NCBI GenBank assembly: GCA_964548105.1
Contig: CAZJPU010000025.1
Span: 1 to 13,367, forward strand
DNA length: 13,367 bases
Source of the DNA: Candidatus Woesearchaeota archaeon
GTDB lineage: Archaea > Nanobdellota > Nanobdellia > Pacearchaeales > GW2011-AR1
Reading direction: 5' to 3'
Shown here: piece after piece, positions 212 through 13,367 of the stretch
Layout of the letters: each line of letters begins with the position of its first letter
Position numbering within the stretch: position 1 is the first letter of the stretch
Program-made: the position numbers and the translations under genes
Notes under the pieces: generated by a model
Told to the model about the DNA's origin: nothing
Databases searched by the model: none
The model's input: only the letters and a program-made list of their open reading frames with translations

Positions 212-940
212 ATGAAAAACGAACTAAGAGATTTTGGATTAACAGATAATGAAATAAAGATTTATCTAGTTTTACTCAAGTTAGGGGATGCTAATCCTTC
301 AGAAATAGCTGAAAAAACAGGATTTTCTAGACCTTATGTTTATGATGTATTAGAGAGATTACTAGAAAAACAAATAGTATCAGTAGTTCATGAGAAAAAT
401 AAAAAGAAATATTCAGCAATTGAACCATCATATCTTGTTGAACTTGCAAAACAAAAAGTAGATAATATTGAGAAAATCCTCCCAGAATTAATAAGTCTTA
501 AAGGGACAAGCAAAGAAGAAATAAAAGTTGAAACACATAAAGGAAAATATGTTTTTAAGACACTTTTAAATGATATTATTAATAGAGGTAAAAAAAATGA
601 AGAAGTACTTTTGTATGGGATTGAAGAAGAGACATTAGAAGACCTTGGAGAGTTTATGCCAATATATTTTGATACATATTTTGCTAGACTAAAAAGCTTA
701 GGAATTAAAGAAAGAGTTATTACTAAAGTTGGAGGTAAAATCATTGCACCTACTCAAACTACAAAGTATAAGTTTTTGCCTGAAAAGACTATTGGTAATA
801 CTGCATTTGGAGTATATGAGAACAAAGTTTTTATTTTTCTATGGGGAGATCCAAATTACTTGATATCTATAGAAAGTAAAAGAGTTGCAGATTCTTATCG
901 GGGTCAATTTGAGATATTATGGAAGGCTGCTAAAGATTAA
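212..940 (+). CDS. TrmB-family transcriptional regulator (N-terminal winged helix plus ~150-aa C-terminal effector-like domain), paralog 1
   Basis: 242-aa ORF. The N-terminus GLTDNEIKIYLVLLKLGDANPSEIAEKTGFSRPYVYDVLERLLEKQIV matches the TrmB wHTH pattern. It is collinear by eye with the neighbouring 239-aa ORF, including the C-terminal YxNKVxIxxW...FxILWxxAK. Confidence 0.85.
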   Translation: MKNELRDFGLTDNEIKIYLVLLKLGDANPSEIAEKTGFSRPYVYDVLERLLEKQIVSVVHEKNKKKYSAIEPSYLVELAKQKVDNIEKILPELISLKGTSKEEIKVETHKGKYVFKTLLNDIINRGKKNEEVLLYGIEEETLEDLGEFMPIYFDTYFARLKSLGIKERVITKVGGKIIAPTQTTKYKFLPEKTIGNTAFGVYENKVFIFLWGDPNYLISIESKRVADSYRGQFEILWKAAKD

Positions 941-1656
941 TACTTTGCAACATTCCATAAGATTTTAAAGAAATTCATATTACTTTTTGCAGTATCTTCA
1001 CTTTTTATCATAAATCCAAAAGGCAATTCTGTCCAAACAATGGTAACTACCTTATTTCCATAGATTACTATTGTTGATGGAAAATCATAACTTTCAGGAA
1101 GAAACTTCATTTTTAATAATTTTAAAGATTCGTTTCTCTTTTTTTTCCTTACTTTCTCATTATAGATCATTTTAACATTTATTTTTAATTTTGATCTTTC
1201 TTTATTCCAATATTTCTGGTAAGCTGGAAACATATCTGCAAATTTACTTTGAGCTCCATAAGCAAATAAATCTTTTTTTTCTTTTAAAACATCTTCAAAA
1301 ATTGATTTTATGCCTTTCTTACCTTTAAAGATGATTGCTTCTTCTTTTAATTTATTAGAATTATATCTTTCTTTTAGTTCCCCCATAATTGAATTTAATT
1401 TCTCTTGTTTTTCAGTTATAATTTCTTGTAATCTTTCTGGATTAATTGGCTCAAAGACTTTTCTATTAGCTGAAACAACATAAGTTACTAGTCCTTTTTC
1501 AATAAGTCTTTCTAAGGCATCATATACATTTGTTCTATTGACCTCAGATTTATTTGTTATTTCTCCAGCTAATGCTGATCCTAGTTCAAGTAATGAAAGA
1601 TATACTTTTACTTCAGTGTTACTTAAGCCTATTTCTTGTAATATTTCTTTGTCCAT
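937..1656 (-). CDS. TrmB-family transcriptional regulator, paralog 2
   Basis: 239-aa ORF. The N-terminus GLSNTEVKVYLSLLELGSALAGEITNKSEVNRTNVYDALERLIEKGLV is a TrmB wHTH. The C-terminus (IVIYGNKVVTIVW...FFKILWNVAKY) parallels paralog 1. Confidence 0.85.
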   Translation of the reverse strand: MDKEILQEIGLSNTEVKVYLSLLELGSALAGEITNKSEVNRTNVYDALERLIEKGLVTYVVSANRKVFEPINPERLQEIITEKQEKLNSIMGELKERYNSNKLKEEAIIFKGKKGIKSIFEDVLKEKKDLFAYGAQSKFADMFPAYQKYWNKERSKLKINVKMIYNEKVRKKKRNESLKLLKMKFLPESYDFPSTIVIYGNKVVTIVWTELPFGFMIKSEDTAKSNMNFFKILWNVAKY

Positions 1657-1677
1657 AGCAACATTAGGGGATTGTAT

Positions 1678-1685
1678 TTTATAAA
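1678..1685 (-). promoter_or_regulatory. TTTATAAA TATA-box candidate for TrmB paralog 2
   Basis: This palindromic octamer lies 21 nt upstream of the start at 1656. The same octamer occurs at similar spacing upstream of two other minus-strand transcription-unit starts. Confidence 0.5.
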
Positions 1686-1712
1686 TGTTGTTATTAGAGT
1701 TACAACAAAAAC

Positions 1713-1720
1713 TTATATAT
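1713..1720 (+). promoter_or_regulatory. TTATATAT TATA-box candidate for SBP-A
   Basis: It is centred ~25 nt upstream of the ATG at 1741. This supports the 1741 start and a leaderless transcript. Confidence 0.45.
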
Positions 1721-1740
1721 GCTTTTTTGGAAAAAAATTT

Positions 1741-2799
1741 ATGGTAATCAAGAAAAAGACAATTATAATATTAGTATTATTGGTATTTTTAGTCTTAACT
1801 ATAAATCTTATACTGATTATTAATTCAAATATTACAGGTAAAAGTATAACTCATGAGAGTTATAAAATCGGAGTTATTCTTCCTATGAGTGGACATTTTG
1901 CTTTTTATGGAGAAAAATCATTACAAGGGGCAAAATTAGCAATTGAAAATTATGATAATATTGAACTTATAATAGAAGATGATGAAGGAGATCCAAGTAG
2001 AGCGGCAAGTGCTGCTCATAAACTAATTAATGTTGATGATGTTGATGCAATTATAACAATTAGGTCAAGTATAAGTTCTGCTATTGCTCCAATTGCAGAA
2101 AAAAATAAGGTTGTAATGCTATATCCTTCAACTATTAATGCTCCTGCTGAAGGAAATTCGTATGTTTATAAAAATTTTATTAATATAGAGAAAGATTGCA
2201 GTGAACTAGCTAAAGTTTTAAAAAATAAAAAAGGAGCTTTAATTGGACATAATCTTGATGCAACACATACTTGTATTAAAGGTTTTAAAGATCAAGGAGT
2301 TAATCTCCAATCAGAATTTTTTAATAAAGGGGATAATGATTTTAGGACATCTTTATTAAAAATAAAGGAAAATAATCCTGACTTCATTGTTATAAGGGGT
2401 GATAAAAAGATTTTGCCAACAATACTAAGACAAATGAAAGAACTTGATATAAATCAAGTACAACTAGTCTGCCCTCAATCTGGATTATGCAATGATAAAA
2501 AGACTATTCTAGAATTTGAAGAATACTTTGAAAATGCTTTAGGATCTTCAATTTATGAAGGGATTGAAGAAAATGGTTTTGAAGATCCAATAGATATGAC
2601 TTTTGCAATGTATGAAAATATTGACATACTTTCAAAGCTTCTAAATGATTGTAAGGGAAATAATGAATGTATGATTAAAGAGCTTCAAACTAAAAAGTTT
2701 CAAGGATTAGATGGAGAAATTGTATTTAATGATAAAGGGGTCTCTCAAAGATCTACAACATTAATGAAATTTGAAAATGGGGAATGGGAGATATATTAA
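1741..2799 (+). CDS. Type I periplasmic-binding-fold (LivJ/LivK-like) ABC substrate-binding protein with N-terminal TM anchor (SBP-A)
   Basis: The track ORF starts at 1672, but the internal ATG at 1741 gives MVIKKK plus a hydrophobic helix (TIIILVLLVFLVLTINLILII). This matches the other three SBPs and sits ~21 nt downstream of a TTATATAT box. The mature part starts YKIGVILPMSGHFAFYGEKSLQGAKLAIE, a typical Liv-type SBP N-lobe. Confidence 0.8.
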   Translation: MVIKKKTIIILVLLVFLVLTINLILIINSNITGKSITHESYKIGVILPMSGHFAFYGEKSLQGAKLAIENYDNIELIIEDDEGDPSRAASAAHKLINVDDVDAIITIRSSISSAIAPIAEKNKVVMLYPSTINAPAEGNSYVYKNFINIEKDCSELAKVLKNKKGALIGHNLDATHTCIKGFKDQGVNLQSEFFNKGDNDFRTSLLKIKENNPDFIVIRGDKKILPTILRQMKELDINQVQLVCPQSGLCNDKKTILEFEEYFENALGSSIYEGIEENGFEDPIDMTFAMYENIDILSKLLNDCKGNNECMIKELQTKKFQGLDGEIVFNDKGVSQRSTTLMKFENGEWEIY

Positions 2800-3899
2800 T
2801 TATCTAATGCTACAATATTACCATTATCTATTTTAATAAAACTAATCTCTTTGGTAACTCCGCCATCTTCAGTGAATGTAAGATAACCTGATGCTCCATC
2901 ATAATATTCAACAGTTTTCAGATATTCTTTTAATATTTCTGGATTAGTTGAATCAGTCTCTTCTATTGCTTTTGCAATTAACTTCACTATATCATAACCA
3001 TTATCTGCTCCAAAATCAGGAACTTGATTATATTCTTTTTTAAACTTTTCAATAAAATCTGTGGTTGGACTTACTTGAGAGGTTGCTATTGTTCCTTCTA
3101 AAGCTCCATTAGCATTTTCAATTCTGGTTGTATCAACTAATTCTGCATAAATAGGAATATTTACATCAGCCTGTTTTAATTGTTTTGAAATAATATCTTG
3201 GTAAATATACTGGATAAATATTGCATCAGGTTTAGCTTCTTTAACTTTTAATATTTCTGTTTTAAAATCCTTTTGTTCAGCAGAAGGAAGTTCGTAAACT
3301 ACTACTTCCCCTCCAGATTCAATAAAACTCTCCTTAACAGATCTTGCTTGAACAATCTCCCATGCTTGTTGTGATCCAATTATTGCAAGTTTTCTATGCC
3401 CATTATTATAAATCTTCTTTCCTAATAATCTACTTACATCTTCATCAGCCATCCAAATATTAAATATATAATCACATTCTTGTTCAAACTCTTTTATACC
3501 AATAGCTGGAGCAATCATTAACACATTGTTATTACAAGCAATTGGTGCAACTGCAAGAGCTGAACCTGACCAAGTTGTTCCAATAATAATCTCTACGCCA
3601 TTATTATTTAATTGATAGAAAGATGAAACTGCAGTTTTTTTATCATCATTTGGCGTATCTTGGTAATTTATCTTTATTTTTTTACCATTTATCCCCTCTG
3701 CATTATTAATTTCTTTTACTGCTAAATCAACACCTTGCTTTGTGGTAATTCCTTCGTTTGCTCCTACTCCAGATAATATTCCTATAAAACCAATTTCAAT
3801 TATTTCTTCTCCTTGTTTAGGAATAAATACAAAAATATTAACAATAATTATGGCAACAATTAAGACTGTTAACCCAACCAACATATTTTTATTCTTCAT
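2796..3899 (-). CDS. LivJ/LivK-like ABC substrate-binding protein, TM-anchored (SBP-B)
   Basis: 367-aa ORF. It has MKNKNMLVGLTVLIVAIIIVNIFVFI as anchor, then IEIGFIGILSGVGANEGITTKQGVDLAVKEINNAEGINGKKIKINYQD, the classic Liv-type SBP motif series. Confidence 0.85.
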   Translation of the reverse strand: MKNKNMLVGLTVLIVAIIIVNIFVFIPKQGEEIIEIGFIGILSGVGANEGITTKQGVDLAVKEINNAEGINGKKIKINYQDTPNDDKKTAVSSFYQLNNNGVEIIIGTTWSGSALAVAPIACNNNVLMIAPAIGIKEFEQECDYIFNIWMADEDVSRLLGKKIYNNGHRKLAIIGSQQAWEIVQARSVKESFIESGGEVVVYELPSAEQKDFKTEILKVKEAKPDAIFIQYIYQDIISKQLKQADVNIPIYAELVDTTRIENANGALEGTIATSQVSPTTDFIEKFKKEYNQVPDFGADNGYDIVKLIAKAIEETDSTNPEILKEYLKTVEYYDGASGYLTFTEDGGVTKEISFIKIDNGNIVALDN

Positions 3900-3920
3900 A
3901 TATCCAAAATAGAACCAAAC

Positions 3921-3928
3921 TTTTTAAA
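3921..3928 (-). promoter_or_regulatory. Possible internal TATA-like element (TTTAAAAA on the minus strand) for SBP-B
   Basis: It lies in the 30-nt livG/SBP-B gap, 21 nt upstream of the start at 3899, and abuts the livG stop. Confidence 0.3.
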
Positions 3929-3929
3929 T

Positions 3930-4664
3930 CTACTCACCTAAATAAGCCTCTAGAACTTGTTTATTGTTTTTTATTTGTTTAGGAGTTCCTTGTGCAATTA
4001 CTTTACCTTCATCCATTACAATAACATGGTCTGCTATTCCCAAGGTAAAATTCATATCATGTTCAATTAACAATATTGTTTCTCCTTGTTTTTTTAATTC
4101 CTTTAGAAGATTCATAATATCTTTTCTTAATCTAGGATTAACTCCTGCAACAGGTTCATCTAACATTAATAATTCATGAGATTTAAGAATAGCTCTTGCA
4201 ATTTCAACTAATCTTTTCTGACCAAAACTTAAATCTCCTGCTTGTTTTTCCATAAACTTTTCTATTCCAACTAATTTAGCAATATTATCTACTTGTTTAT
4301 AATCTTCTTTATCAAAATTATAACCTATTAAATTTTTCCAAAATTTAGTGTCTTTATTACTTATTGCCAATAATAAGTTTTCCTTAACTGTTAAATTATC
4401 AAATAATCTTGATTGTTGGAATAATCTTGAAATTCCTAAATTTGATATTTGATTTACTTGTTTATTTGTTATATTTGTCTTATTAAAAACAATTTTTCCA
4501 GAATCAGCCTTTAAGATTCCTGAAATTAAATTAAATATTGTTGTTTTCCCACTGCCATTAGGACCAATTAAGGCTGTAATCTTATTTTTTTTAATGTCAA
4601 AACTAGTTTTATCTACTGCTTTTATTCCTCCAAAATGTTTTTTTAAATTAGTTATTTTTAGCAT
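3930..4664 (-). CDS. livG: Branched-chain-amino-acid-type ABC transporter ATP-binding protein (LivG-like)
   Basis: It has Walker A GPNGSGKT, Q-loop context GISRLFQQSRLFDNLTVKENL (LivG-like rather than LivF-like), signature LSFGQKR, Walker B LLMLDEP, H-loop IEHDM and a C-terminal EAYLGE. Confidence 0.9.
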   Translation of the reverse strand: MLKITNLKKHFGGIKAVDKTSFDIKKNKITALIGPNGSGKTTIFNLISGILKADSGKIVFNKTNITNKQVNQISNLGISRLFQQSRLFDNLTVKENLLLAISNKDTKFWKNLIGYNFDKEDYKQVDNIAKLVGIEKFMEKQAGDLSFGQKRLVEIARAILKSHELLMLDEPVAGVNPRLRKDIMNLLKELKKQGETILLIEHDMNFTLGIADHVIVMDEGKVIAQGTPKQIKNNKQVLEAYLGE

Positions 4665-4665
4665 T

Positions 4666-5082
4666 TTATTTTATATTTGAGTATTTTTCTAATTCTTTTA
4701 TTATTAATGGGATTTCATTAATAGATTCTTTAACAGTTTTAATCTCAATATCATCACCATAATAATTTATCCCGTTTCTTAATTTTCTATATCTATCAAA
4801 CTTATTTGAAATAGATTCTTCCTTTAAAATCTCTCTTAAAAAATAAGTCATTGATTCATGGTTTAAGAATTTATATCCTTTAATAAAACCTAATGCTTCG
4901 ACATACTCTCTTAATCCTTCGTATAACTCTCGAAAAATTGTTTTTAGAGTATTTTCTTTAATGGTTATTTCAATTGCAGTTTCTATTGCTTGTTTAGAAG
5001 ATTTAACTAAACTTTTTGCTCTTATAGTATTCACTGGGACTTTTTTTACACTTCCTTGTTTTAAACAATATTTAAAATCCAT
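4666..5082 (-). CDS. HEPN-domain protein, partner of the upstream MNT; the canonical R-x4-6-H is replaced by R-x4-Y-Y
   Basis: 138 aa, predicted all-helical. The C-terminal third has FDRYRKLRNGINYYGDD, which matches the HEPN Rx4-6H region except for the His. Its start overlaps the stop of a minimal nucleotidyltransferase gene (TAATG), the classic MNT-HEPN pair arrangement. Confidence 0.65.
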   Translation of the reverse strand: MDFKYCLKQGSVKKVPVNTIRAKSLVKSSKQAIETAIEITIKENTLKTIFRELYEGLREYVEALGFIKGYKFLNHESMTYFLREILKEESISNKFDRYRKLRNGINYYGDDIEIKTVKESINEIPLIIKELEKYSNIK

Positions 5083-5612
5083 TATAAAACTTCTAACTCT
5101 CCTGATAAAACAATTCCATTACAGATACTGTTAACTAATCCAGAATTTTTATCCTTTAAATTTTCCCATGCTTTCTTAGTGAATTTATGAATATTAAGTT
5201 TTCTATTAAGGATTTTTTCATAGTTTTCTATTTTTAATTCTTTATTGATATCAGAGATTAGACAAATATCAATATCACTATCTAAATCATCCATTGCTTG
5301 AGAATAACTACCAAATAAAACAATTATCGGAAAGTCATATTCTTTTTCAAGTTCTTTAATAAGGCCTGATTTTCTTAATTTTTCTAGATTATAATATGCC
5401 TTTAGATTTAGTGTTTCTCTAGAAAGAACTAATTTATATGAGGGGTAGAGATCATCTTTTTCTAAGACTAATAAATCTCTTTTTACAAATATATTAAGAT
5501 ATTTTCTTATTGTTGTGTGGTTTATTTTTAATATTCTGGCTAATTCCCTAATATGAAATCCCTTTTTTGGATCTTCAAAAAAAGAACTAAGGATGTTTAT
5601 TTTTGTTTCCAT
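5082..5612 (-). CDS. Winged-helix plus minimal nucleotidyltransferase (MNT, Pol-beta superfamily) protein
   Basis: 176 aa. The N-terminal FHIRELARILKINHTTIRKYLNIFVKRDLL is HTH-like. The central VLFGSYSQAMDDLDSDIDICLIS is the G-S...D-x-D nucleotidyltransferase signature (G101-S102, D113, D115). Confidence 0.75.
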   Translation of the reverse strand: METKINILSSFFEDPKKGFHIRELARILKINHTTIRKYLNIFVKRDLLVLEKDDLYPSYKLVLSRETLNLKAYYNLEKLRKSGLIKELEKEYDFPIIVLFGSYSQAMDDLDSDIDICLISDINKELKIENYEKILNRKLNIHKFTKKAWENLKDKNSGLVNSICNGIVLSGELEVL

Positions 5613-5652
5613 ATGTAAGTATATATTTCCAGATGTTTATAAATGTTTCCAT
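5591..5652 (-). repeat. Direct duplication of the MNT gene 5' end (two 22-nt copies 40 nt apart)
   Basis: On the + strand, 5591..5612 ggatgtttatttttgtttccat aligns with 5631..5652 agatgtttataaatgtttccat at 18 of 22 positions. On the coding strand this is ATGGAAACAaaaATAAACATC (the real start) against ATGGAAACAtttATAAACATC, which overlaps the livM stop as TGATG. Confidence 0.8.
5636..5643 (-). promoter_or_regulatory. TTTATAAA TATA-box candidate upstream of the MNT-HEPN-livG-SBP-B segment
   Basis: The octamer lies 23 nt upstream of the MNT start at 5612. It sits inside the upstream copy of the duplicated 5' end, where the aaa-to-ttt difference creates it. Confidence 0.5.
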
Positions 5653-6524
5653 CACTCTAACTTTACTTTTCCATAAAATCCTTTTGGTTTAAAGATTAAT
5701 ATTAATAATAATATTAAAGCATACAAGATTTGTCTTGCAGGACCTATTACTGAACTTGGAAATCCAACAAATCTTAGCATCTCGGGAATTAATAATAGGA
5801 TAATTGTTGCAATCACGGTTCCTTTTAAGCTAGCGAGTCCTCCAACTATTACAATTAACAAGACAGGAATTAATTGCATTATTGTAAATGAAGAAGGATC
5901 AATAAAAGTTATATAATGAGCATATAAACTTCCTGAAATACCTGCAAAAAAGGCTGAGGCTCCTAATGCTATTGCTTTTATTTTAAAAGTATTTTTTCCA
6001 AGAGTTTTTGATGCAAGTTCATCATCCCTTACTGATTCAAGAACTTTTCCAAAAGGAGAGGTTGTTATTCTTTTGATAATTAAATATGAAACTAGTCCAA
6101 TAACTATTGTTAATATTAAGAAACTTAGGTTGCTTGAAAATATAAATCCAAATAAACTAGGTTTTGGAATTCCTGGAAGTCCAAGAGGGCCCCTAGTAAG
6201 TGAAGTCCAATTTAGTAAAACTGCATAAACCACAAAAGAAAAACCCATTGTTGCTAAAGCTAAATAATCTCCTTTTAATTTGTGGGTTGGGACGGCTAAT
6301 AAAAATCCAAAAATCATTGATACAATTCCTGCAAATAAAAGACAAATCCAAAAAGGCCAACCTGCAAGTGCGAGCAATGCACTTGTATATGCTCCAATTC
6401 CAAAAAAAGCAATATGTCCTAAATTAAGAAGTCCTGTAAATCCTATTGCAAGTTGAAGGCTTATAGCTAGAATAATATAAATTCCGATTAGTATTGCTAA
6501 GTGGATTAGGTATGCTTCTATCAT
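5652..6524 (-). CDS. livM: Branched-chain-amino-acid-type ABC transporter permease (LivM-like)
   Basis: 290 aa, polytopic and hydrophobic. GLLNLGHIAFFGIGAYTSALLA matches the LivM core motif, and KIKAIALGASAFFAGISGSLYA matches the C-terminal conserved region. Confidence 0.85.
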   Translation of the reverse strand: MIEAYLIHLAILIGIYIILAISLQLAIGFTGLLNLGHIAFFGIGAYTSALLALAGWPFWICLLFAGIVSMIFGFLLAVPTHKLKGDYLALATMGFSFVVYAVLLNWTSLTRGPLGLPGIPKPSLFGFIFSSNLSFLILTIVIGLVSYLIIKRITTSPFGKVLESVRDDELASKTLGKNTFKIKAIALGASAFFAGISGSLYAHYITFIDPSSFTIMQLIPVLLIVIVGGLASLKGTVIATIILLLIPEMLRFVGFPSSVIGPARQILYALILLLILIFKPKGFYGKVKLE

Positions 6525-7645
6525 TTTGAATATTCAACAAATTTTCCTCCTTTAATTGTTTTTATAACAAACTCCCTATCCAAACTTCCATCTTTATTAA
6601 ACTTCATTTTTCCAGAAAGACCCTCATAGATTCCTAAATTAATAAAAAAATCTTTTATACAATCAGTGTCCTTTTCATTACATTCTTCTAAGGCTTTATC
6701 AATTAATAAAATTCCATCATAAGTAAATAAGGATGTAGCAGTAGGAATCTCATTGTATTTCTCTTCATATCTTTTTTCGAAATCTTTTTCCCCCTCAGAA
6801 TCTTTTGCATTATTATAAGGGAAAGTGTAAATAAGTCCTTCTAGTGCTTTTCCTCCAGACTCAAGTACAGAAGGCGATTCTATCCCATAATATCCATAAA
6901 GTGGAATTGAATAATCAAGTTCTTTAAGTTGCTTTGCAAATAAACCAATCTGAATTTCTCCTTGATCTATAAAAATAGCATCAGGGTTATCTTTTTTAAT
7001 TTTTAATATCACTGTCCTAAAATCCATTAGGTCCAAATCTGTGGGGTTTATTGAACTAATTTCTATTCCTTTCTCTTCCAATGATTCTGGCAGTCTCTTT
7101 GCATATTCCTGACCAAAATAATTAGTGCTATGGACTATTGCAACTTTTTTTAGATTTATTGATTTCATAAACTCAGCCATATAATCTGCTTCTGTTGAAA
7201 TTTGTGTTGCAAAATTTAAAACACTAGAATATTCTTCAAAGACAGCATCATCTAATAATCCTGTTGAAAAAAGCAGGGCATTTTTTTTATCAGCCATTGG
7301 AGCAATTGCTCTTAAACCAGAAACACAACCAGGCCCAATTATAATTTTTATATTATCTAGGTTAAAGAATTTCTGAGCAATAGTTACTGTTTCTTTTGGA
7401 TCACAAGCACTATCTTGATAATCTACAGAGAATTTATGATTTGTATCTTCTAATCCTAGTTCTAAACCATATTTTATTGATTCTCCCCAATCAGCAAAAG
7501 GCCCTGTTAAAGGAGTTATAAACCCGATTTTAATTGTTTCTTCATCACCCTCTTGTTTTGGTGAAATTGAAATCAAAACAACTGCTATAATTAATACTGC
7601 TATTACAATTCCTGCAATTAAATTATTTTTATTTTTATTTTTCAT
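6521..7645 (-). CDS. LivJ/LivK-like ABC substrate-binding protein, TM-anchored (SBP-C)
   Basis: 374 aa. The anchor is LIAGIVIAVLIIAVVLISI, followed by IKIGFITPLTGPFADWGESIKYGLELGLED. Its stop overlaps the livM start (ATGA at 6521..6524). Confidence 0.85.
   Translation of the reverse strand: MKNKNKNNLIAGIVIAVLIIAVVLISISPKQEGDEETIKIGFITPLTGPFADWGESIKYGLELGLEDTNHKFSVDYQDSACDPKETVTIAQKFFNLDNIKIIIGPGCVSGLRAIAPMADKKNALLFSTGLLDDAVFEEYSSVLNFATQISTEADYMAEFMKSINLKKVAIVHSTNYFGQEYAKRLPESLEEKGIEISSINPTDLDLMDFRTVILKIKKDNPDAIFIDQGEIQIGLFAKQLKELDYSIPLYGYYGIESPSVLESGGKALEGLIYTFPYNNAKDSEGEKDFEKRYEEKYNEIPTATSLFTYDGILLIDKALEECNEKDTDCIKDFFINLGIYEGLSGKMKFNKDGSLDREFVIKTIKGGKFVEYSK
7518..7645 (-). repeat. Near-identical 5' cassette, copy 1 (SBP-C start, anchor and linker)
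   Basis: On the given (+) strand, ataaacccgattttaattgtttcttcatcaccctcttgttttggtgaaattgaaatcaaaacaactgctataattaatactgctattacaattcctgcaattaaattattttt...cat matches 8641..8762. The differences are 2 substitutions and one 6-nt indel. Confidence 0.9.
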
Positions 7646-8762
7646 ATTTTACGGCCTCCTTGTTTTTGATAATATTAACAGAAGGTTGGATACCTTCTAA
7701 ATCTCCATTTTCATCAAAACTATAATTTCCTAAAACACCTTCAAAATTTTCTAAATCATAAAGATAATCACGAATACAATCAGGATCATCACTATTGCAA
7801 GAGTCAATTGCTTGAACTAAGATATAAACTGCATCATATCTTGCAACAGCAGGAAACTCTAAATCTGGAAGCTCTTGATAGGTTGTTTTATATTTTGTAA
7901 AATATTGTTTTTTCTTTTCATTATTTGTGCTTGTTGGATCTGAAAAATATATCATATCTTGTGCTTTTTCAATTTGTTGAATTTTATTGCTTCCTCCAAA
8001 ATAATTTCCATATAAATCTCCATTATAATTTAATTCTTCAAGTTGTTTTAAGATTAGTTCTCCTTGTGCAAGCCCACTTGGATTAATGAATATTGCATCT
8101 AAATTAATAAGTTTCAATAATTCGGTTTTAAAATCAGTTGAACCTGATTCAAAATATTCTTCGATAATAACTCCCTCTGATTCTTCAAATTTAACTTTAA
8201 ATGCGTCTCGTAGTCCTATTGTGTAATCTGTTTGTTCTGAGATTAATCCTATTTTTTTATGTTTTTTAATAATAGTATCAGTTGCAATTTCTGCAATATC
8301 AGTATCTGAATATGAATTTCTGAATATAAAATCTCCTAAATTTGAGATATCTGGGTGAGTTGCATAAGTTGCAAATAAAATTACCTGATTTTCTTCAGCT
8401 ATTGGTGCAACAGTTAAAACTTCTTGGCCACAAGAAACAAGTAATATATTAATATTATCAAAATTAATTAGTTTATTTGCAGCAGATAATCCTCCTTCTC
8501 CGGTACATTTACCATCTTGAAATACTACTTCAAGTTGTTTTCCATTAACTCCTCCTTTATTGTTTATTTCTTCTACTGCAAGATTAGTTGCTTTTTCATC
8601 AATTGATCCTAAAAATGCAACATTTCCAGACAGCGGACCAATAAACCCGATTTTAATTGTTTCTTCATCACCCTCTTGTTTTGGTGAAATCGAAATCAAA
8701 ACAACTGCTATAATTAATACTGCAATTACAATTCCTGCAATTAAATTATTTTTATTTTTCAT
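7635..8762 (-). CDS. LivJ/LivK-like ABC substrate-binding protein, TM-anchored (SBP-D)
   Basis: 375 aa. It has the same anchor as SBP-C, then IKIGFIGPLSGNVAFLGSIDEKATNLAVEEINNKGGVNGKQLEVVFQD. Its start overlaps the livH stop (ATGA at 8759..8762). Confidence 0.85.
   Translation of the reverse strand: MKNKNNLIAGIVIAVLIIAVVLISISPKQEGDEETIKIGFIGPLSGNVAFLGSIDEKATNLAVEEINNKGGVNGKQLEVVFQDGKCTGEGGLSAANKLINFDNINILLVSCGQEVLTVAPIAEENQVILFATYATHPDISNLGDFIFRNSYSDTDIAEIATDTIIKKHKKIGLISEQTDYTIGLRDAFKVKFEESEGVIIEEYFESGSTDFKTELLKLINLDAIFINPSGLAQGELILKQLEELNYNGDLYGNYFGGSNKIQQIEKAQDMIYFSDPTSTNNEKKKQYFTKYKTTYQELPDLEFPAVARYDAVYILVQAIDSCNSDDPDCIRDYLYDLENFEGVLGNYSFDENGDLEGIQPSVNIIKNKEAVKYEK
8641..8762 (-). repeat. 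Near-identical 5' cassette, copy 2 (SBP-D start, anchor and linker)
   Basis: This is the partner of 7518..7645. It encodes MKNKNNLIAGIVIAVLIIAVVLISISPKQEGDEETIKIGFI, against MKNKNKNNLIAG... in copy 1. Similarity collapses immediately downstream. Confidence 0.9.
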
Positions 8763-9640
8763 TTTGAACTATTTCTTTTTATTCCAAGTATTCCATTAGG
8801 CCTGAACAGCAAAAATAAGAATAAAAGAAGGAATGCTATAGCATCTTTATATCCTGAAGGCAAAAACCAAATTCCAAAGTTTTCTGTAAGTCCTAAAAGA
8901 AAAGCTCCAAGAATAGCTCCTGGAACATTTCCTATTCCTCCAATAATTGCTGCTGTAAATCCTTTAATAATTAATCCAGTTCCCATAGTAGGCTCAAGAT
9001 TTTGTTCAAGAGAAACAAGAACTCCGGCAATTCCTGCAATTGCACTTCCTATTATAAATGACCATTTATAGATTTTTTCTGAAGAAATACCTACGATTGC
9101 TGCAACATCCTTATTATCAGCAACAGCACGCATAGCTTTTCCTATTTTTGTTTTCTTCATAAATAAAAATAATAATGTTAAAAGAATAAAGGAAGTGATT
9201 ATGATAAAAATCTGTAATGGAGTTATTATTGCGCCCATTAATTCAAGACCTTTATTTACTTCTATATACCCTATGGTTTTAACATCTGCTCCAAAGAAAA
9301 TTAAGAGGAGAGATTCTATAAGGATTAATAATCCAAAACTTGCGATTAAAAGAATAATATTACTTGCTTTTCTTTTTCTTAATTGTTTGTAAACTGTTGC
9401 ATTTATTAATAACCCTAAAAGGGCAGTAGAGATAATTGCAAGAATTACTGAAAATCCAAAATTTAACCCTAATACTGAATATGTAAGATATAGGGAATAA
9501 GCTCCAAAAGCAATAACTGCTCCATGAGCAAAATGAACAAATTTACAAGTAGAATAAATTAGTGAAAAACCACTAGCCACTAAAGCATAGATAGCTCCTG
9601 CAATTAATCCATTAACTAAAAGTTGAGTTATTATTGACAT
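8759..9640 (-). CDS. livH: Branched-chain-amino-acid-type ABC transporter permease (LivH-like)
   Basis: 293 aa, polytopic. QLLVNGLIAGAIYALVASGFSLIYSTCKFVHFAHGAVIAFGAY matches the LivH N-terminal signature. Confidence 0.85.
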   Translation of the reverse strand: MSIITQLLVNGLIAGAIYALVASGFSLIYSTCKFVHFAHGAVIAFGAYSLYLTYSVLGLNFGFSVILAIISTALLGLLINATVYKQLRKRKASNIILLIASFGLLILIESLLLIFFGADVKTIGYIEVNKGLELMGAIITPLQIFIIITSFILLTLLFLFMKKTKIGKAMRAVADNKDVAAIVGISSEKIYKWSFIIGSAIAGIAGVLVSLEQNLEPTMGTGLIIKGFTAAIIGGIGNVPGAILGAFLLGLTENFGIWFLPSGYKDAIAFLLLFLFLLFRPNGILGIKRNSSK

Positions 9641-9833: not shown

Positions 9834-12800
9834 ATGGAAGAAAAGAGTGAATCTAATCCAGTGAATGATATTGCAAATTCAATAGTTCAGAATGCTATAA
9901 ATAGTATGGCAGAAGATGGACAAAAAGCAGTAAATAAAGTTTTAGAAAATGGGGGGGAGAGTATTTCCCATAATAGTTCTATTAAACATGAAGTTTTAGA
10001 TGAATATGTAAAATGGTTCTCAGAATTAAGTAATAAAGATGTATCTATTGCAGGTGGAAAAGGAGCATCACTAAGTGAAATGTTTAATGCAAAATTTCCG
10101 GTTCCTCCTGGATTTGTTATAACAGCACAAGCATTTGATTTTTTTATTGTAAAAAATAAGTTAAAAGAAAAAATAAAATCAATAATAGAAGATGTTGATA
10201 TGGAAGAAACTTCGGATTTGCAAAAAGCATCAAAAGAAATCAGAGAATTAATTGAACAGGGTAAAATTTCAGAAAATCTACAAGAAGAAATTTTAGAATC
10301 CTATCGTATTTTAAGTACAGAGAAAATTGATGAAAAAGGAGTTTCTAAAGATGCATTAAATATTTTAAAAAATTCTCAAGAACCTATATTTGTATCAGTA
10401 AGAAGTAGTGCAACAACAGAGGACCTTGTTGAAGCAAGTTTTGCAGGCCAACAAGAAACTTTTTTAAATGTTAAGGGAGATTCTAGCTTGATTACGAACA
10501 TAAAAAAATGTTTTTCTTCATTATATACTCCTAGGGCAATTTATTATAGAAATAAAAAAGGTTTTAAAGAAGGAGAGGCACTATTATCTGTTGTTGTCCA
10601 AAAAATGGTTGATTCTGAAAAATCAGGGGTTGTTTTTTCAAAAGATCCTGTAAATTTAGATGATAATGTAATTATTGAAGCAGTTTATGGATTAGGAGAA
10701 GGAATTGTATCAGGTAAGATAAAACCAGACCATTATCTTGTCTCAAGAGATTTAAAGATTCGAGAAATAAAGGTTGTAAGTAAAAAGGTTGCACTTATAA
10801 GAACAAGTAGTGGAAAAAATGAGATAGTTAAATTAAGTGATGAAAGAAGTAAAATGCAAGTTCTTACTAATTCTCAAATACTTGATGTTGCAAATTATGC
10901 AATAAAACTTGAAGAACATTATAAAAAACCACAAGATATTGAATTTGCAATTGAAGATAATAAAATATATATTGTCCAGTCAAGACCAATTACAACACTT
11001 CATAAAAAAACTGAAATAGGGAAAATTTCTGGAACTGTAATTTTAGAAGGTTCGAGTGCTAGTCCTGGTGTTGGTGCTGGAACTGTAAAAATACTTCATG
11101 ATATGGAAGATCTTCCAAAAATCAAAAAAGGAGATGTTTTAGTTACTGAAATGACAAATCCTGATATGGTTGTTGCAATGCAAAGGTCTGTTGCAATTGT
11201 AACAGATGAAGGGGGTATGACAAGTCATGCAGCAATTGTTAGTCGTGAAATGGGAATTCCTTGTGTTGTTGGTACTGATGAAGCAACAAAATTACTAAAA
11301 GATGGTATGAAAATAACTGTTGATGGTAGTAGTGGTAAAATATATGAGGGAGAGGTAGCAGAAACAAAAGCAGTTGAAGTTAAACCTATTGTTGAAACTG
11401 AACGTATTAAATTAAAGGTTATTGTAGACTTACCAGATTTTGCAGAAAGAGCTGCTGCATCAGGAATTAGGGCAGTAGGACTTACAAGATTAGAAGGCAT
11501 GATTGCAAAAATGGGAAAACATCCTCTTGAACATGAAAAAGAAGGCACATTAGAGGACTATACAGAAAAACTTCGTGATGGTTTAGAAAGAATTTCTCAT
11601 TATTTTGATTCTTTATGGGTGAGAGCAAGTGATATTAGAACAGATGAATATGGAAGTTTAAAAGGAGCTCCAGAACGTGAGATTAATCCTATGCTTGGAT
11701 TTCACGGAGTAAGATTTAGTTTAAAACATCCAAAAATATTACAAGCAGAATTAATTGCTATAAAAAAGATTGCAGAAAAAAATCCAAATAAAAGATTTGG
11801 AATTATGTTTCCACAGATAATATCTATAGAAGAAGTTAGAGAAGCAAAAAAATATTTTAATCAAATAAAATTGCCAAACATGGAATTTGGAGTAATGATA
11901 GAAACACCTGGTGCTGTTCAAATTATTGATGATATTTGTCAAGAAGGGATTGATTTTATAAGTTTTGGGACAAATGATTTAACTCAATTTACATTAGGAG
12001 TTGATAGGAATAATGAAGATGTGCAATACTTATATGATGAAATGCATCCTGCAATTTTTTCTCAAATAAAACGAGTTATTGGGGCTTGTAGAAGAAATAA
12101 AGTAGAAACAAGTATTTGTGGACAAGCAGGAAGTAAAAAGGAAATGGTAGAATTTTTATTTAAAAAAGGAATAAATAGTATTTCTGTAAATGCAGATGCT
12201 GGTTATGAAATATCAAAGTTAATAAAACAATTAGAAGAAGAAGGAACTAGAGAAACAGAAGAGAATAAAGAAGATATTTCAGTTCAAGAAGATGTTCGAC
12301 CTGTTGTTCAAGAGAAGGCAATAGAACCAGAACAATCAGCAGAAGTAGAACAATCAGCAGAAGTAGAACAATCAGCAGAAGTAGAACAACCTGTTGTGCA
12401 AGAGAAAGAACAAAAAATAGAACAAGTGCAAACTAAACTACCTCAACCAGATTTACAAAATCAACAAGTTTCACAACCTCAACAAGTTTCACAAAATCAA
12501 CCAGATTCACAATCTCCATATCCTATTTTGAATAAAAAAAGATATATCAGACTTAAGAAAAAATTGAAAAAAATGCAAAAAAGCCCTAATAATAATCCTG
12601 AAGTAATTGAAAGAATATCTAAAGAACTTGAAGAATATAGGAAAAATAGAGATTCGTCTAATGCTCCAATATCTGAAAACAAAGATTATGAAGAAAATAT
12701 TGGCCCTATTGAACCTTTTAATAGTCTAAAAGAAATAGAAGAAAAAGCAAAAGAAATACATGAAGAAGTAAAACAAGAGAACTTAGAAAAAGCTAAAGAA

Positions 12801-13367
12801 AATCAGGAAATAGAAGATAGGATAAAAACAAGTATTGAAAGGGTAGATGGTGAGGAGATCGAAAGGGATAATGAGGAGATAGAAAGGGATAATGAGGAGA
12901 TAGAAGGGAATGAGGTAAATGGTGATGATATAAAAAATAATGATGAAGAGATGGAAATGGATGAAATAAAGAGTGAGGATGAGGGGATGGAAAGGGATGA
13001 AATAAAGAGTGAAAATGAAGAGATAGAAAGGGATATGCAAGGAGATACAGATAATAAAGATCAATCAATAGGAATTGATAATGAAGAAGATAAATTTGAT
13101 GAAGTAAATGCGCAAAAAATTATGGATGAGGTTGATGGGTTAAGTAATTTTAATAATGAAGATGAAAATGATAAAGAGAGAAAAAGGGATAATGAATATG
13201 AAAATAATAATAAAGAGGATAATGATGATGAAGAAAATGATGAAGATAATAAAGGGGATGAAATAAAGAGTGAAAATGATGAAGATGGTAAAGAGGAAGG
13301 ATTAGGAGTTTACAAACCTAAAGAAGAAAAAAAGCAAGAATATAGTTATGGTTTTGACGAGGAATAG
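9834..13367 (+). CDS. ppsA: Phosphoenolpyruvate synthase (pyruvate, water dikinase) with ~57-aa N-terminal extension and ~375-aa acidic low-complexity C-terminal tail
   Basis: The core spans residues ~58-800. It has YVKWFSELSNKDVSIAGGKGASLSEM (PpsA N-terminus, ATP-grasp) and IYIVQSRPIT. The swivel domain is GGMTSHAAIVSREMGIPCVVG, with the phospho-His codon at 11226..11228. The PEP-utilising barrel has FGVMIETPGA, ISFGTNDLTQF and SICGQAG (Cys codon 12117..12119). The frame stays open a further 375 codons to TAG at 13365..13367. Confidence 0.9.
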   Translation: MEEKSESNPVNDIANSIVQNAINSMAEDGQKAVNKVLENGGESISHNSSIKHEVLDEYVKWFSELSNKDVSIAGGKGASLSEMFNAKFPVPPGFVITAQAFDFFIVKNKLKEKIKSIIEDVDMEETSDLQKASKEIRELIEQGKISENLQEEILESYRILSTEKIDEKGVSKDALNILKNSQEPIFVSVRSSATTEDLVEASFAGQQETFLNVKGDSSLITNIKKCFSSLYTPRAIYYRNKKGFKEGEALLSVVVQKMVDSEKSGVVFSKDPVNLDDNVIIEAVYGLGEGIVSGKIKPDHYLVSRDLKIREIKVVSKKVALIRTSSGKNEIVKLSDERSKMQVLTNSQILDVANYAIKLEEHYKKPQDIEFAIEDNKIYIVQSRPITTLHKKTEIGKISGTVILEGSSASPGVGAGTVKILHDMEDLPKIKKGDVLVTEMTNPDMVVAMQRSVAIVTDEGGMTSHAAIVSREMGIPCVVGTDEATKLLKDGMKITVDGSSGKIYEGEVAETKAVEVKPIVETERIKLKVIVDLPDFAERAAASGIRAVGLTRLEGMIAKMGKHPLEHEKEGTLEDYTEKLRDGLERISHYFDSLWVRASDIRTDEYGSLKGAPEREINPMLGFHGVRFSLKHPKILQAELIAIKKIAEKNPNKRFGIMFPQIISIEEVREAKKYFNQIKLPNMEFGVMIETPGAVQIIDDICQEGIDFISFGTNDLTQFTLGVDRNNEDVQYLYDEMHPAIFSQIKRVIGACRRNKVETSICGQAGSKKEMVEFLFKKGINSISVNADAGYEISKLIKQLEEEGTRETEENKEDISVQEDVRPVVQEKAIEPEQSAEVEQSAEVEQSAEVEQPVVQEKEQKIEQVQTKLPQPDLQNQQVSQPQQVSQNQPDSQSPYPILNKKRYIRLKKKLKKMQKSPNNNPEVIERISKELEEYRKNRDSSNAPISENKDYEENIGPIEPFNSLKEIEEKAKEIHEEVKQENLEKAKENQEIEDRIKTSIERVDGEEIERDNEEIERDNEEIEGNEVNGDDIKNNDEEMEMDEIKSEDEGMERDEIKSENEEIERDMQGDTDNKDQSIGIDNEEDKFDEVNAQKIMDEVDGLSNFNNEDENDKERKRDNEYENNNKEDNDDEENDEDNKGDEIKSENDEDGKEEGLGVYKPKEEKKQEYSYGFDEE
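12330..12389 (+). repeat. Perfect 18-nt tandem repeat, 3.3 copies (EQSAEV)n, in the ppsA tail
   Basis: gaacaatcagcagaagta occurs at 12330, 12348 and 12366 with no mismatch, then gaacaa. The array is flanked by the direct repeat cctgttgt[t/g]caagagaa at 12300 and 12390 (PVVQEK). Confidence 0.95.
12462..12497 (+). repeat. 18-nt tandem repeat, 2 copies (QQVSQP/QQVSQN)
   Basis: caacaagtttcacaa occurs at 12462 and 12480, in frame. Confidence 0.9.
12852..12914 (+). repeat. 21-nt tandem repeat, 3 copies (EEIERDN, EEIERDN, EEIEGNE)
   Basis: The copies are gaggagatcgaaagggataat, gaggagatagaaagggataat and gaggagatagaagggaatgag. Copies 1 and 2 differ at one base. Confidence 0.9.
12994..13018 (+). repeat. 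25-nt perfect dispersed repeat, copy 1 (RDEIKSEN)
   Basis: gggatgaaataaagagtgaaaatga is identical at 13255..13279, 261 nt away and in frame. A third, degenerate copy lies at ~12959 (MDEIKSED). Confidence 0.9.
13255..13279 (+). repeat. 25-nt perfect dispersed repeat, copy 2 (GDEIKSEN)
   Basis: Identical to 12994..13018. Confidence 0.9.

Follow-up and report, generated by a model that had tools for sequence, protein, structure and literature searches.

A wHTH-MNT gene and a HEPN-fold gene lie between livM and livG

We analysed a 13,367-nt stretch of DNA, the metagenomic contig CAZJPU010000025.1 (the window), in which a pair of small toxin-antitoxin (TA)-like genes is embedded in a cluster of Liv-type transporter genes. 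The window is AT-rich (GC ~21-36% in 500-nt windows), and its nearest matches are metagenome-assembled genomes (MAGs) labelled Pacearchaeota, Woesearchaeota or Nanoarchaeota. The transporter genes form a single tight cluster on the minus strand, in the order livH, SBP1 and SBP2 (encoding substrate-binding proteins, SBPs), livM, a 176-aa open reading frame (ORF), a 138-aa ORF, livG and SBP3. The livM-type permease gene (5652..6524, minus strand) matched Pfam BPD_transp_2 (4.3e-49) and NCBIfam LivM (3.4e-60). The gene for the livG-type ATP-binding cassette (ABC) ATPase (3930..4664, minus strand) matched Pfam ABC_tran (1.4e-33), BCA_ABC_TP_C and NCBIfam LivG (2.1e-70).

The 176-aa ORF (5082..5612, minus strand) encodes a winged helix-turn-helix (wHTH) domain fused to a minimal nucleotidyltransferase (MNT), and the 138-aa ORF (4666..5082, minus strand) encodes a partner with the HEPN fold. 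The pair is referred to here as the cassette. The stop codon of the MNT gene and the start codon of the HEPN gene overlap by 1 nt as TAATG. The HEPN stop codon TAA (4668..4666) is followed by one base and then by the livG ATG (4664). An earlier note on this DNA (the original prediction) had placed such a pair between livM and livG on the minus strand, with the junctions TAATG and TAA-a-ATG and with livG tightly chained to the HEPN gene, and the sequence confirmed each of these points. For each protein there are hundreds of homologues that are 60-70% identical and nearly fixed in length, at 176 and 137 aa; relative to the family consensus, the window HEPN gene has one extra codon. Because of these homologues and their nearly fixed lengths, both small ORFs are real genes.

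Domain assignment of the two proteins

The wHTH-MNT protein was assigned from Pfam, NCBIfam and PADLOC models, a family profile and an AlphaFold2 (AF2) model. A winged helix (~residues 1-62) at its N-terminus is joined by a helical linker to an MNT domain with the motif GS...DxD. Pfam NTP_transf_2 scored 23 bits (cut-off 21) and Polbeta 26.7 bits (cut-off 26.9), and the match to an ArsR-type HTH was weak. The NCBIfam MntA model matched at 7.5e-6, below its cut-off, and PADLOC PDC-M05A matched at 5.5e-15, with residues 2-165 aligned to profile positions 13-182 of 201. The family profile matched MntA of the Shewanella HepT-MntA system (PDB 5yep). The AF2 model, with a predicted local distance difference test score (pLDDT) of 90.6, resembled MarR-, IclR- and AspA-type winged helices at its N-terminus and the MNT antitoxins 8xeo/8xeh at its C-terminus. 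The GS...DxD residues G101, S102, D113 and D115 are invariant across the family. In the winged helix, the region of helix 32-44 holds invariant N31, H32, T34 and R36, and T33 is nearly invariant.

The HEPN partner gave no meaningful direct sequence match in Pfam (E <= 0.01), NCBIfam or PDB, and its identification therefore needed a fold search and transitive Pfam matches. PADLOC PDC-M05B matched it at 1.1e-6. The AF2 model is a helical bundle with a pLDDT of 95.2. Among the top Foldseek matches of this model were 2hsb (AF_0298), 3o10 (the HEPN domain of sacsin) and the toxins 7ae6, 7bxo and 5yep, with probabilities of ~1, TM-scores of 0.52-0.67 (target-length normalised) and weak E-values of 4e-3 to 0.13. 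The best structural match was 2hsb, with a target-length normalised TM-score of 0.67. The partners of divergent wHTH-MNT paralogues match Pfam HEPN PF05168 at 3e-16 to 1e-3 and align with the window protein, including at H75 and at R-[NH]-x3-Y. The window HEPN itself did not reach the gathering threshold of PF05168, and its tie to that family is transitive and by fold only. Profile searches and structure matches thus upheld the wHTH-MNT and HEPN assignments that had been proposed for the two genes.

The canonical HEPN motif Rx4-6H is replaced in this protein by R99-x2-R102-N-G-I-N-Y107-Y108-G (RNGINYY), which was invariant in 49-120 homologues. H75 is also invariant and lies elsewhere than in the motif. 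Y107 and Y108 presumably fall in the motif helix that carries the acceptor tyrosine in HepT and type VII systems. As far as its sequences tell, the HEPN clade seen here is one without the canonical catalytic histidine. The description of this partner as a HEPN RNase toxin was not borne out, as that histidine is absent from the whole family. Because Rx4-6H is replaced family-wide, RNase competence of the HEPN partner cannot be assumed.

A conserved putative promoter/operator element precedes the MNT gene

The 70 nt 5' of the MNT start codon were aligned in 74 distinct loci of the cassette family. The last 40 nt before the MNT ATG are conserved without indels, and the commonest base is present in 80-99% of the loci at most positions. 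Conservation ends sharply at -40, and the sequence farther upstream is unrelated between loci. This 40-nt element, present in 72-74 distinct loci, is much better conserved than the coding sequence of the family. In the window it occupies 5613..5652 on the minus strand and reads ATGGAAACATTTATAAACATCTGGAAATATATACTTACAT (family consensus ATGGAAAGATTTATAAACAAGTGGAAATATATATTTCCAA), ending at the MNT ATG. It comprises the entire 39-nt spacer between livM and the MNT gene together with the last base of the livM stop codon TGA (5652).

The element contains a TATA box, TTTATAAA (5636..5643, minus strand), which is invariant in the family and centred ~27 nt before the MNT ATG. A purine-rich sequence resembling a B recognition element, GGAAAC, lies 5' of it. 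Between the TATA box and the ATG, ending one base before the latter, sits an 18-bp palindrome and putative operator (5614..5631, minus strand) that reads TGGAAATATATACTTACA in the window, an imperfect copy of TGGAAA-N6-TTTCCA. The right half-site of the window copy, CTTACA in place of TTTCCA, is the most divergent combination seen in the family. When the window was searched with the palindrome at <=2 mismatches, the only intergenic match was the one before the MNT gene, and the total number of matches was no more than expected by chance. No copy was found at the livH promoter or anywhere else between genes in the window.

In archaeal promoters, a TATA box centred ~27 nt before the ATG fits a leaderless mRNA. 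Its spacing here therefore predicts a leaderless cassette mRNA, with the site of a dimeric repressor lying over the transcription start. The palindrome is likely the operator of the wHTH domain, and the winged helix is the obvious candidate to bind it. We infer promoter function, the leaderless start and operator binding from the conservation and layout of the element. As a TATA box and an operator are conserved within the livM-MNT spacer, the cassette appears to bring its own promoter. The pair had been thought to leave no room for a promoter; this stands for the HEPN-livG junction and fails for the livM-MNT spacer, which is filled by the TATA-plus-operator element.

Compensatory changes between the half-sites were also considered. 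A weak excess of matched T/T variants was seen (5 against an estimated expectation of ~2.4), and it was not counted as evidence. A 21-nt direct repeat, 86% identical and with its copies 40 nt apart, was observed at 5592-5612 and 5632-5652. The MNT coding sequence opens with 21 nt (ATGGAAACAAAAATAAACATC) similar to the left part of the element (ATGGAAACATTTATAAACATC), and across the family ATGGAAA marks the start codon as well as the element's left border.

The cassette family is found in varied contexts

A profile search of 1.84 billion cluster representatives returned 742 clusters at E<=1e-10. The best 150 of these 742 matches are 73-215 aa long, mostly ~170-180 aa, and none has the length of a HEPN fusion. 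In the close family (80 metagenome and 3 genome loci), every MNT gene whose contig extends far enough has the HEPN gene directly downstream. A liv permease or SBP gene stood beside the cassette in none of these 80 metagenome and 3 genome loci. Clustering of the neighbouring genes revealed no conserved synteny around the cassettes; recurrent neighbours are other wHTH-MNT/HEPN paralogues, RelE/AbrB-type pairs and AbiE modules. Three contigs, including two near-duplicates of each other, have a tyrosine-recombinase-like gene 64-77 nt upstream of the cassette. The IMG/VR viral contigs yielded no member of the family. One of the copies closest to that of the window (66% and 70% identity), in locus L167 (L-numbers are labels of the loci compared), lies in a cluster of TA modules. 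The cassette family is large, DPANN-wide and strongly conserved, and it resembles the PADLOC candidate PDC-M05.

Individual loci illustrate this variety. The L167 region (4447-16531), from a DPANN MAG, holds two AbiE systems, four further pairs of MNT plus partner, DUF2283 genes and an AAA_14/DUF4143 ATPase. In L001/L002 (8987-9377) the cassette is followed, ~20 nt or less from the HEPN stop codon, by a Holliday-junction resolvase (Hjc) gene, which in L087 (~7962 onward) overlaps that stop codon. Several other loci have an unrelated gene whose start lies 0-5 nt beyond the HEPN stop codon. Since variable genes follow so closely, the cassette often heads a short operon of variable downstream genes.

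The cassette occupies a spacer of a few bases at the livM 3' end

We compared 80 species-representative loci that carry a LivM homologue. In 48 of them livG directly follows livM, and in the remainder SBP, TrmB or other genes stand there. The assumption that canonical liv operons run without interruption was therefore too strict, as SBP, TrmB and TA genes are commonly interspersed. No gene separates livM from livG in L011, the closest relative, whose LivM (by tblastn) and LivG are 87% and 80% identical. The uninterrupted livM-livG junction reads gaaTAAaATG in L013, L020, L024 and L053, and TAAtaaaATG in L011. The HEPN-livG junction of the window, aaaTAAaATG, reproduces this native livM-livG junction. 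At the other end of the cassette, the livM frame ends in ...ttagagTGA, the final A being the first base of the conserved element. These junction sequences would be expected if the cassette was inserted precisely, on the old livM stop codon or a little ahead of it.

A cassette of the same family follows livM in only one of the 80 LivM loci, L017, where it is succeeded by SBP-livG-SBP-livF. A further cassette of this family lies directly upstream of livH in L058. In a neighbour-joining (NJ) tree of LivM without bootstrap support, the window and L017 are separated by uninterrupted loci. Two independent insertions in the window and L017, or one gain with several losses, are both possible. The original prediction had held that uninterrupted close relatives, together with copies of the pair elsewhere beside hallmarks of mobile elements, would make the arrangement a trivial recent insertion. 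This is largely what we found, in that L011 is uninterrupted, the 80 metagenome loci lack liv genes and a recombinase-like gene adjoins the cassette in three contigs.

Other TA-like modules are embedded in liv clusters of relatives

Seven loci (L018, L030, L033, L034, L071, L073 and L079) have divergent wHTH-MNT genes, most with a HEPN-type partner, inside their liv clusters or at the margins. In L014, one liv cluster holds two unrelated MNT-HEPN modules (1097-1788 and 3819-4662): a PF05168-type HEPN with an MNT after livM, and an MNT with a DUF86-like gene (RNRIVHRY) after livG. An AbiEii/AbiEi pair lies right after livM in L056 (6606-7816), and a gene for a 457-aa archaeal-type ATPase takes that place in L016 (5030-6403). 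In all, 102 non-liv ORFs embedded in liv clusters included 10 matches to NTP_transf_2/Polbeta, 7 to PIN, 4 to AbiEii, 4 to HEPN, 3 to HepT, 3 to Fic and 3 to MazE. In a random sample of 148 flanking ORFs, 3 matched NTP_transf_2. MNT density per kb did not differ between the inside and the outside of liv clusters (p=0.47). We also considered whether the regular 850-1000-nt gaps of other liv loci hold divergent MNT-HEPN pairs; this was rejected, as the gaps hold TrmB-family regulators divergent from SBP genes.

Interpretation and alternative explanations

Taken together, these findings are best explained by an autonomous, DPANN-wide, TA-like cassette resembling PDC-M05 that has its own promoter/operator and was precisely inserted at the livM-livG junction, a reading to which we assign a probability of about 0.68. 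Its placement is best read as the tolerated insertion of a selfish or accessory module in a plastic gene cluster and not as an evolved transporter regulator. A cassette of ~1 kb would have slotted in exactly at the livM 3' end, where relatives have a spacer of just a few bases. It would give livM a stop codon overlapping its own first base, leave LivM and LivG intact, and let livG retain a tight, probably translationally coupled, start context behind the HEPN gene. As its sequence suggests, the wHTH domain may bind the TGGAAA-N6-TTTCCA palindrome and repress the leaderless promoter of the cassette. The MNT, with its intact GS...DxD, may bind and probably nucleotidylylate the HEPN partner. livG and the last SBP gene would be transcribed through read-through from the livH promoter as well as from the cassette's own promoter.

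Several findings weigh against this explanation. In the window we found no target-site duplication or terminal inverted repeats above the AT-rich background, and no transposase, integrase or tRNA flanking the cassette, so the insertion need not be recent; the most similar of the sampled cassettes shares only 67-70% protein identity. The HEPN family has no histidine 4-6 residues after the motif arginine, so that toxin (RNase) activity is at most putative. The family is unusually conserved for a TA module. The L017 cassette lies at the same livM 3' end, so that one old insertion followed by several losses is possible. Finally, MNT-type genes are over-represented per embedded ORF (10/102 vs 3/148, odds ratio 5.3, p=0.009), which leaves some room for a real liv association.

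There is a modest chance that the pair is not a TA module, and serves DPANN archaea instead as a DNA-tethered nucleotidyltransferase of two subunits, in a housekeeping or regulatory capacity within the cell. The MNT would then be catalytic and the histidine-less HEPN substrate- or nucleotide-binding, as in kanamycin nucleotidyltransferase; the liv position would still be incidental. Such a role would suit a family in which the Rx4-6H histidine is absent throughout while R99, R102, N103, Y107, Y108 and H75 are invariant, and in which lengths are fixed (176/137 aa) and conservation is high across hundreds of clusters. It is also in keeping with some copies whose neighbours are housekeeping genes (Hjc or an aminoacyl-tRNA synthetase, for example) and with the conserved DPANN MNT-HEPN gene that Makarova et al. 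2019 (PMC6393860) described in housekeeping contexts. However, no fusion like that of the 2019 cluster is present among the best 150 of the 742 representatives. Clusters of TA modules (AbiE, other MNT pairs, RelE/AbrB) harbour many of the copies, synteny is not conserved, the pair matches the PADLOC defence candidate PDC-M05, and genuine HEPN toxins from MNT-HEPN systems are among the best structural matches.

About as doubtful is an ancient vertical arrangement, in which a single entry of the cassette, in an ancestor shared by the window and L017 lineages, was followed by losses in L011, L007, L038 and L039. In both loci the cassette lies within 0-3 nt of the livM stop codon, both belong to one larger LivM clade, and their cassettes are only 57-64% identical, which fits long divergence. 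However, this shared position is expected by survivorship, because an insertion between livM and livG that disrupts neither gene must fall in the few-base spacer. Cassette identity is also flat at ~60% whatever the LivM identity, and therefore gives no information on orthology. On the LivM tree, one gain needs at least 2-3 losses, compared with two gains.

It is quite improbable that the pair was co-opted as a regulator of the Liv transporter, with the wHTH-MNT/HEPN pair linking, for example, the expression of livG or the activity of LivG to nucleotide or energy state. livG does start 1 nt after the HEPN stop codon, behind the predicted autoregulated promoter of the cassette. L017 has a same-family cassette behind livM, L058 has one directly upstream of livH, divergent wHTH-MNT/HEPN pairs occur in or at the edge of seven liv clusters, and MNT genes are enriched among the ORFs embedded in such clusters. 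However, liv genes accompany the cassette in 0/80 metagenome family loci, its position relative to the liv genes varies between loci, and the closest relative, L011, does not have the pair. MNT density per kb is no higher inside liv clusters than outside, and unrelated TA types (AbiE, PIN, Fic, HepT) are embedded likewise. As the operator occurs nowhere else in the window, the livH promoter included, nothing supports co-option as a transporter regulator. The original prediction had offered a selfish module and a co-opted one; the selfish module inserted in the operon is favoured, and the operon regulator gained no support, as the palindrome is absent from the livH promoter. We consider it just as improbable that DPANN liv clusters are preferred and functionally exploited landing sites for MNT-HEPN or other TA cassettes, with livG under the control of the TA module and uptake switched with a stress or infection response. 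We take the liv clusters to be plastic and tolerant of small selfish modules, and do not regard the recurrence of such modules as proof of a functional link. A chimeric contig joining a TA locus to a liv operon is very improbable: the source is a short metagenomic contig of ~13.4 kb, but all ORFs are intact, both junctions are base-precise and biologically sensible, and the independent assembly L017 has the same livM-cassette junction.

Other features of the window and of related liv loci

The first gene of the operon is the livH-type permease gene (8759..9640, minus strand; Pfam BPD_transp_2 3.3e-41). A TATA-like sequence, again TTTATAAA, can be read ~26 nt 5' of its ATG. SBP1 (7635..8762, minus strand; Pfam Peripla_BP_6 6.7e-42) and SBP2 (6521..7645, minus strand; Peripla_BP_6 2.3e-49) follow, and SBP3 (2796..3899, minus strand; Peripla_BP_6 4.9e-50) is the last minus-strand gene of the cluster; all three encode Liv-type SBPs. 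A fourth Liv-type SBP gene (1672..2799) is adjoined by two genes for TrmB-family regulators (212..940, plus strand, and 937..1656, minus strand).

No livF-type gene for a second ABC ATPase was found in the 13.4-kb contig, which has livH, livM, livG and four SBP genes. livF is present in most related loci, where its product is 30-35% identical to LivG and its gene lies right after livG or an SBP gene. It is also absent within the fetched locus in L008, L015, L019, L024 and L032. The livF of the genome from which the window derives may be encoded elsewhere in that genome. The view that livG encodes the only ATPase of the transporter is thus correct within the contig and does not hold generally.

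The N-terminal ~40 aa of SBP1 and SBP2 (MKNKN..NLIAGIVIAVLIIAVVLISISPKQEGDEETIKIGF; genes within 6521-8762, minus strand) are almost identical and the remainder of the two proteins is divergent, a pattern suggesting that the signal/anchor region underwent partial duplication or gene conversion in the recent past. These loci have an expanded set of Liv-type SBP genes, numbering four in the window and reaching five or more in relatives. In relatives they occur in repeated units in which a TrmB-family regulator is divergent from an SBP gene (L037 4014-10062; L040 8615-14533; L073 9427-14445; L079 2-4843).

At 9834-13367 on the plus strand, running off the contig end, lies a gene for a protein like phosphoenolpyruvate (PEP) synthase and pyruvate phosphate dikinase (PPDK_N, PEP-utilizers, PEP-utilizers_C). 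Its domains reach ~residue 800 and are followed by a highly acidic, low-complexity C-terminal extension of at least 370 aa with SAEVEQ and EIERDNEE repeats. No RNA genes were found in the window, neither Rfam families nor tRNAs. Many loci whose LivM is 72-81% identical to that of the window carry bacterial labels (Saccharibacteria, Patescibacteria, Nealsonbacteria, Gammaproteobacteria), among them L008, L009, L010, L012, L014, L019, L020, L022 and L025; at least one of them, L014, has an archaeal-type TrmB regulator. These labels suggest mis-binning, mislabelling or cross-domain transfer.

Significance and comparison with known systems

The arrangement is a tidy and fairly ordinary insertion. 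Its position is unusual and not unique, and it is no new regulatory system. If the simple reading is true, the window offers a clean natural case of a compact TA-like cassette entering a few-base operon spacer without breakage, where the cassette supplies the upstream stop codon, takes over the downstream coupling context and adds an internal promoter. This is useful for the annotation of DPANN genomes, and not surprising. Three points are worth keeping, namely a promoter/operator that is conserved, a HEPN motif without the canonical histidine, and TA modules that are repeatedly embedded in DPANN liv clusters. The conserved element and the winged helix form a directly testable pair of operator and recognition helix (TGGAAA half-sites; N31, H32, T34, R36). 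Only if the liv association is non-random would the arrangement bear on the regulation of uptake in genome-reduced symbionts.

PDC-M05 has been described as a TA-like pair of a nucleotidyltransferase and a HEPN protein that is enriched in archaea (PMC12988326). It is a candidate only, found through 'guilt by embedding', with its antiviral role unconfirmed, and DPANN archaea are enriched in such compact modules (PMC12988326). The cassette is likewise an adjacent gene pair that matches the M05A profile over its full length and the M05B profile. In contrast, the window copy lies inside a transporter operon and not in a defence island. In the literature consulted we found no description of the conserved promoter/operator or of the histidine-less motif.

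The cassette shares with the type VII system HepT-MntA (Shewanella SO_3166/SO_3165; 5yep, 7bxo) and with the Aphanizomenon HEPN/MNT pair (7ae2-7ae9) a GS...DxD MNT gene upstream of an overlapping HEPN-fold gene, and it shows profile and structural matches to MntA and to HEPN toxins. Unlike these systems, the window MNT carries a fused N-terminal wHTH, and the HEPN partner is PF05168-type and not HepT/DUF86, with RNGINYY in place of the Rx4-6H histidine. With the classical archaeal MNT-HEPN pairs (COG1708/COG2250; AF_0299/AF_0298, 2hsb) it has in common that 2hsb is the best fold match and that the partners of its paralogues match PF05168. It differs from them in that the window HEPN is without a Pfam match at E <= 0.01 and the MNT has an extra DNA-binding domain. 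The cluster cls.004259 (NEQ050) is a DPANN-specific MNT fused to HEPN, typically in a housekeeping context (Makarova, Wolf & Koonin 2019, PMC6393860). The cassette resembles it in combining MNT and HEPN in DPANN archaea and in being unusually conserved for a TA-like module. Identity with this fused cluster was rejected, as the window has two ORFs and no protein of fusion length is among the best 150 of 742 representatives.

The gene cluster that hosts the cassette resembles the Liv/HAAT operon (livHMGF with livJ/K) in its livH, livM and livG homologues and its four Liv-type SBP genes. It departs from that operon in having no livF on the contig, SBP genes between the permease genes, TrmB-type regulators adjoining the cluster, and a TA-like cassette between livM and livG.

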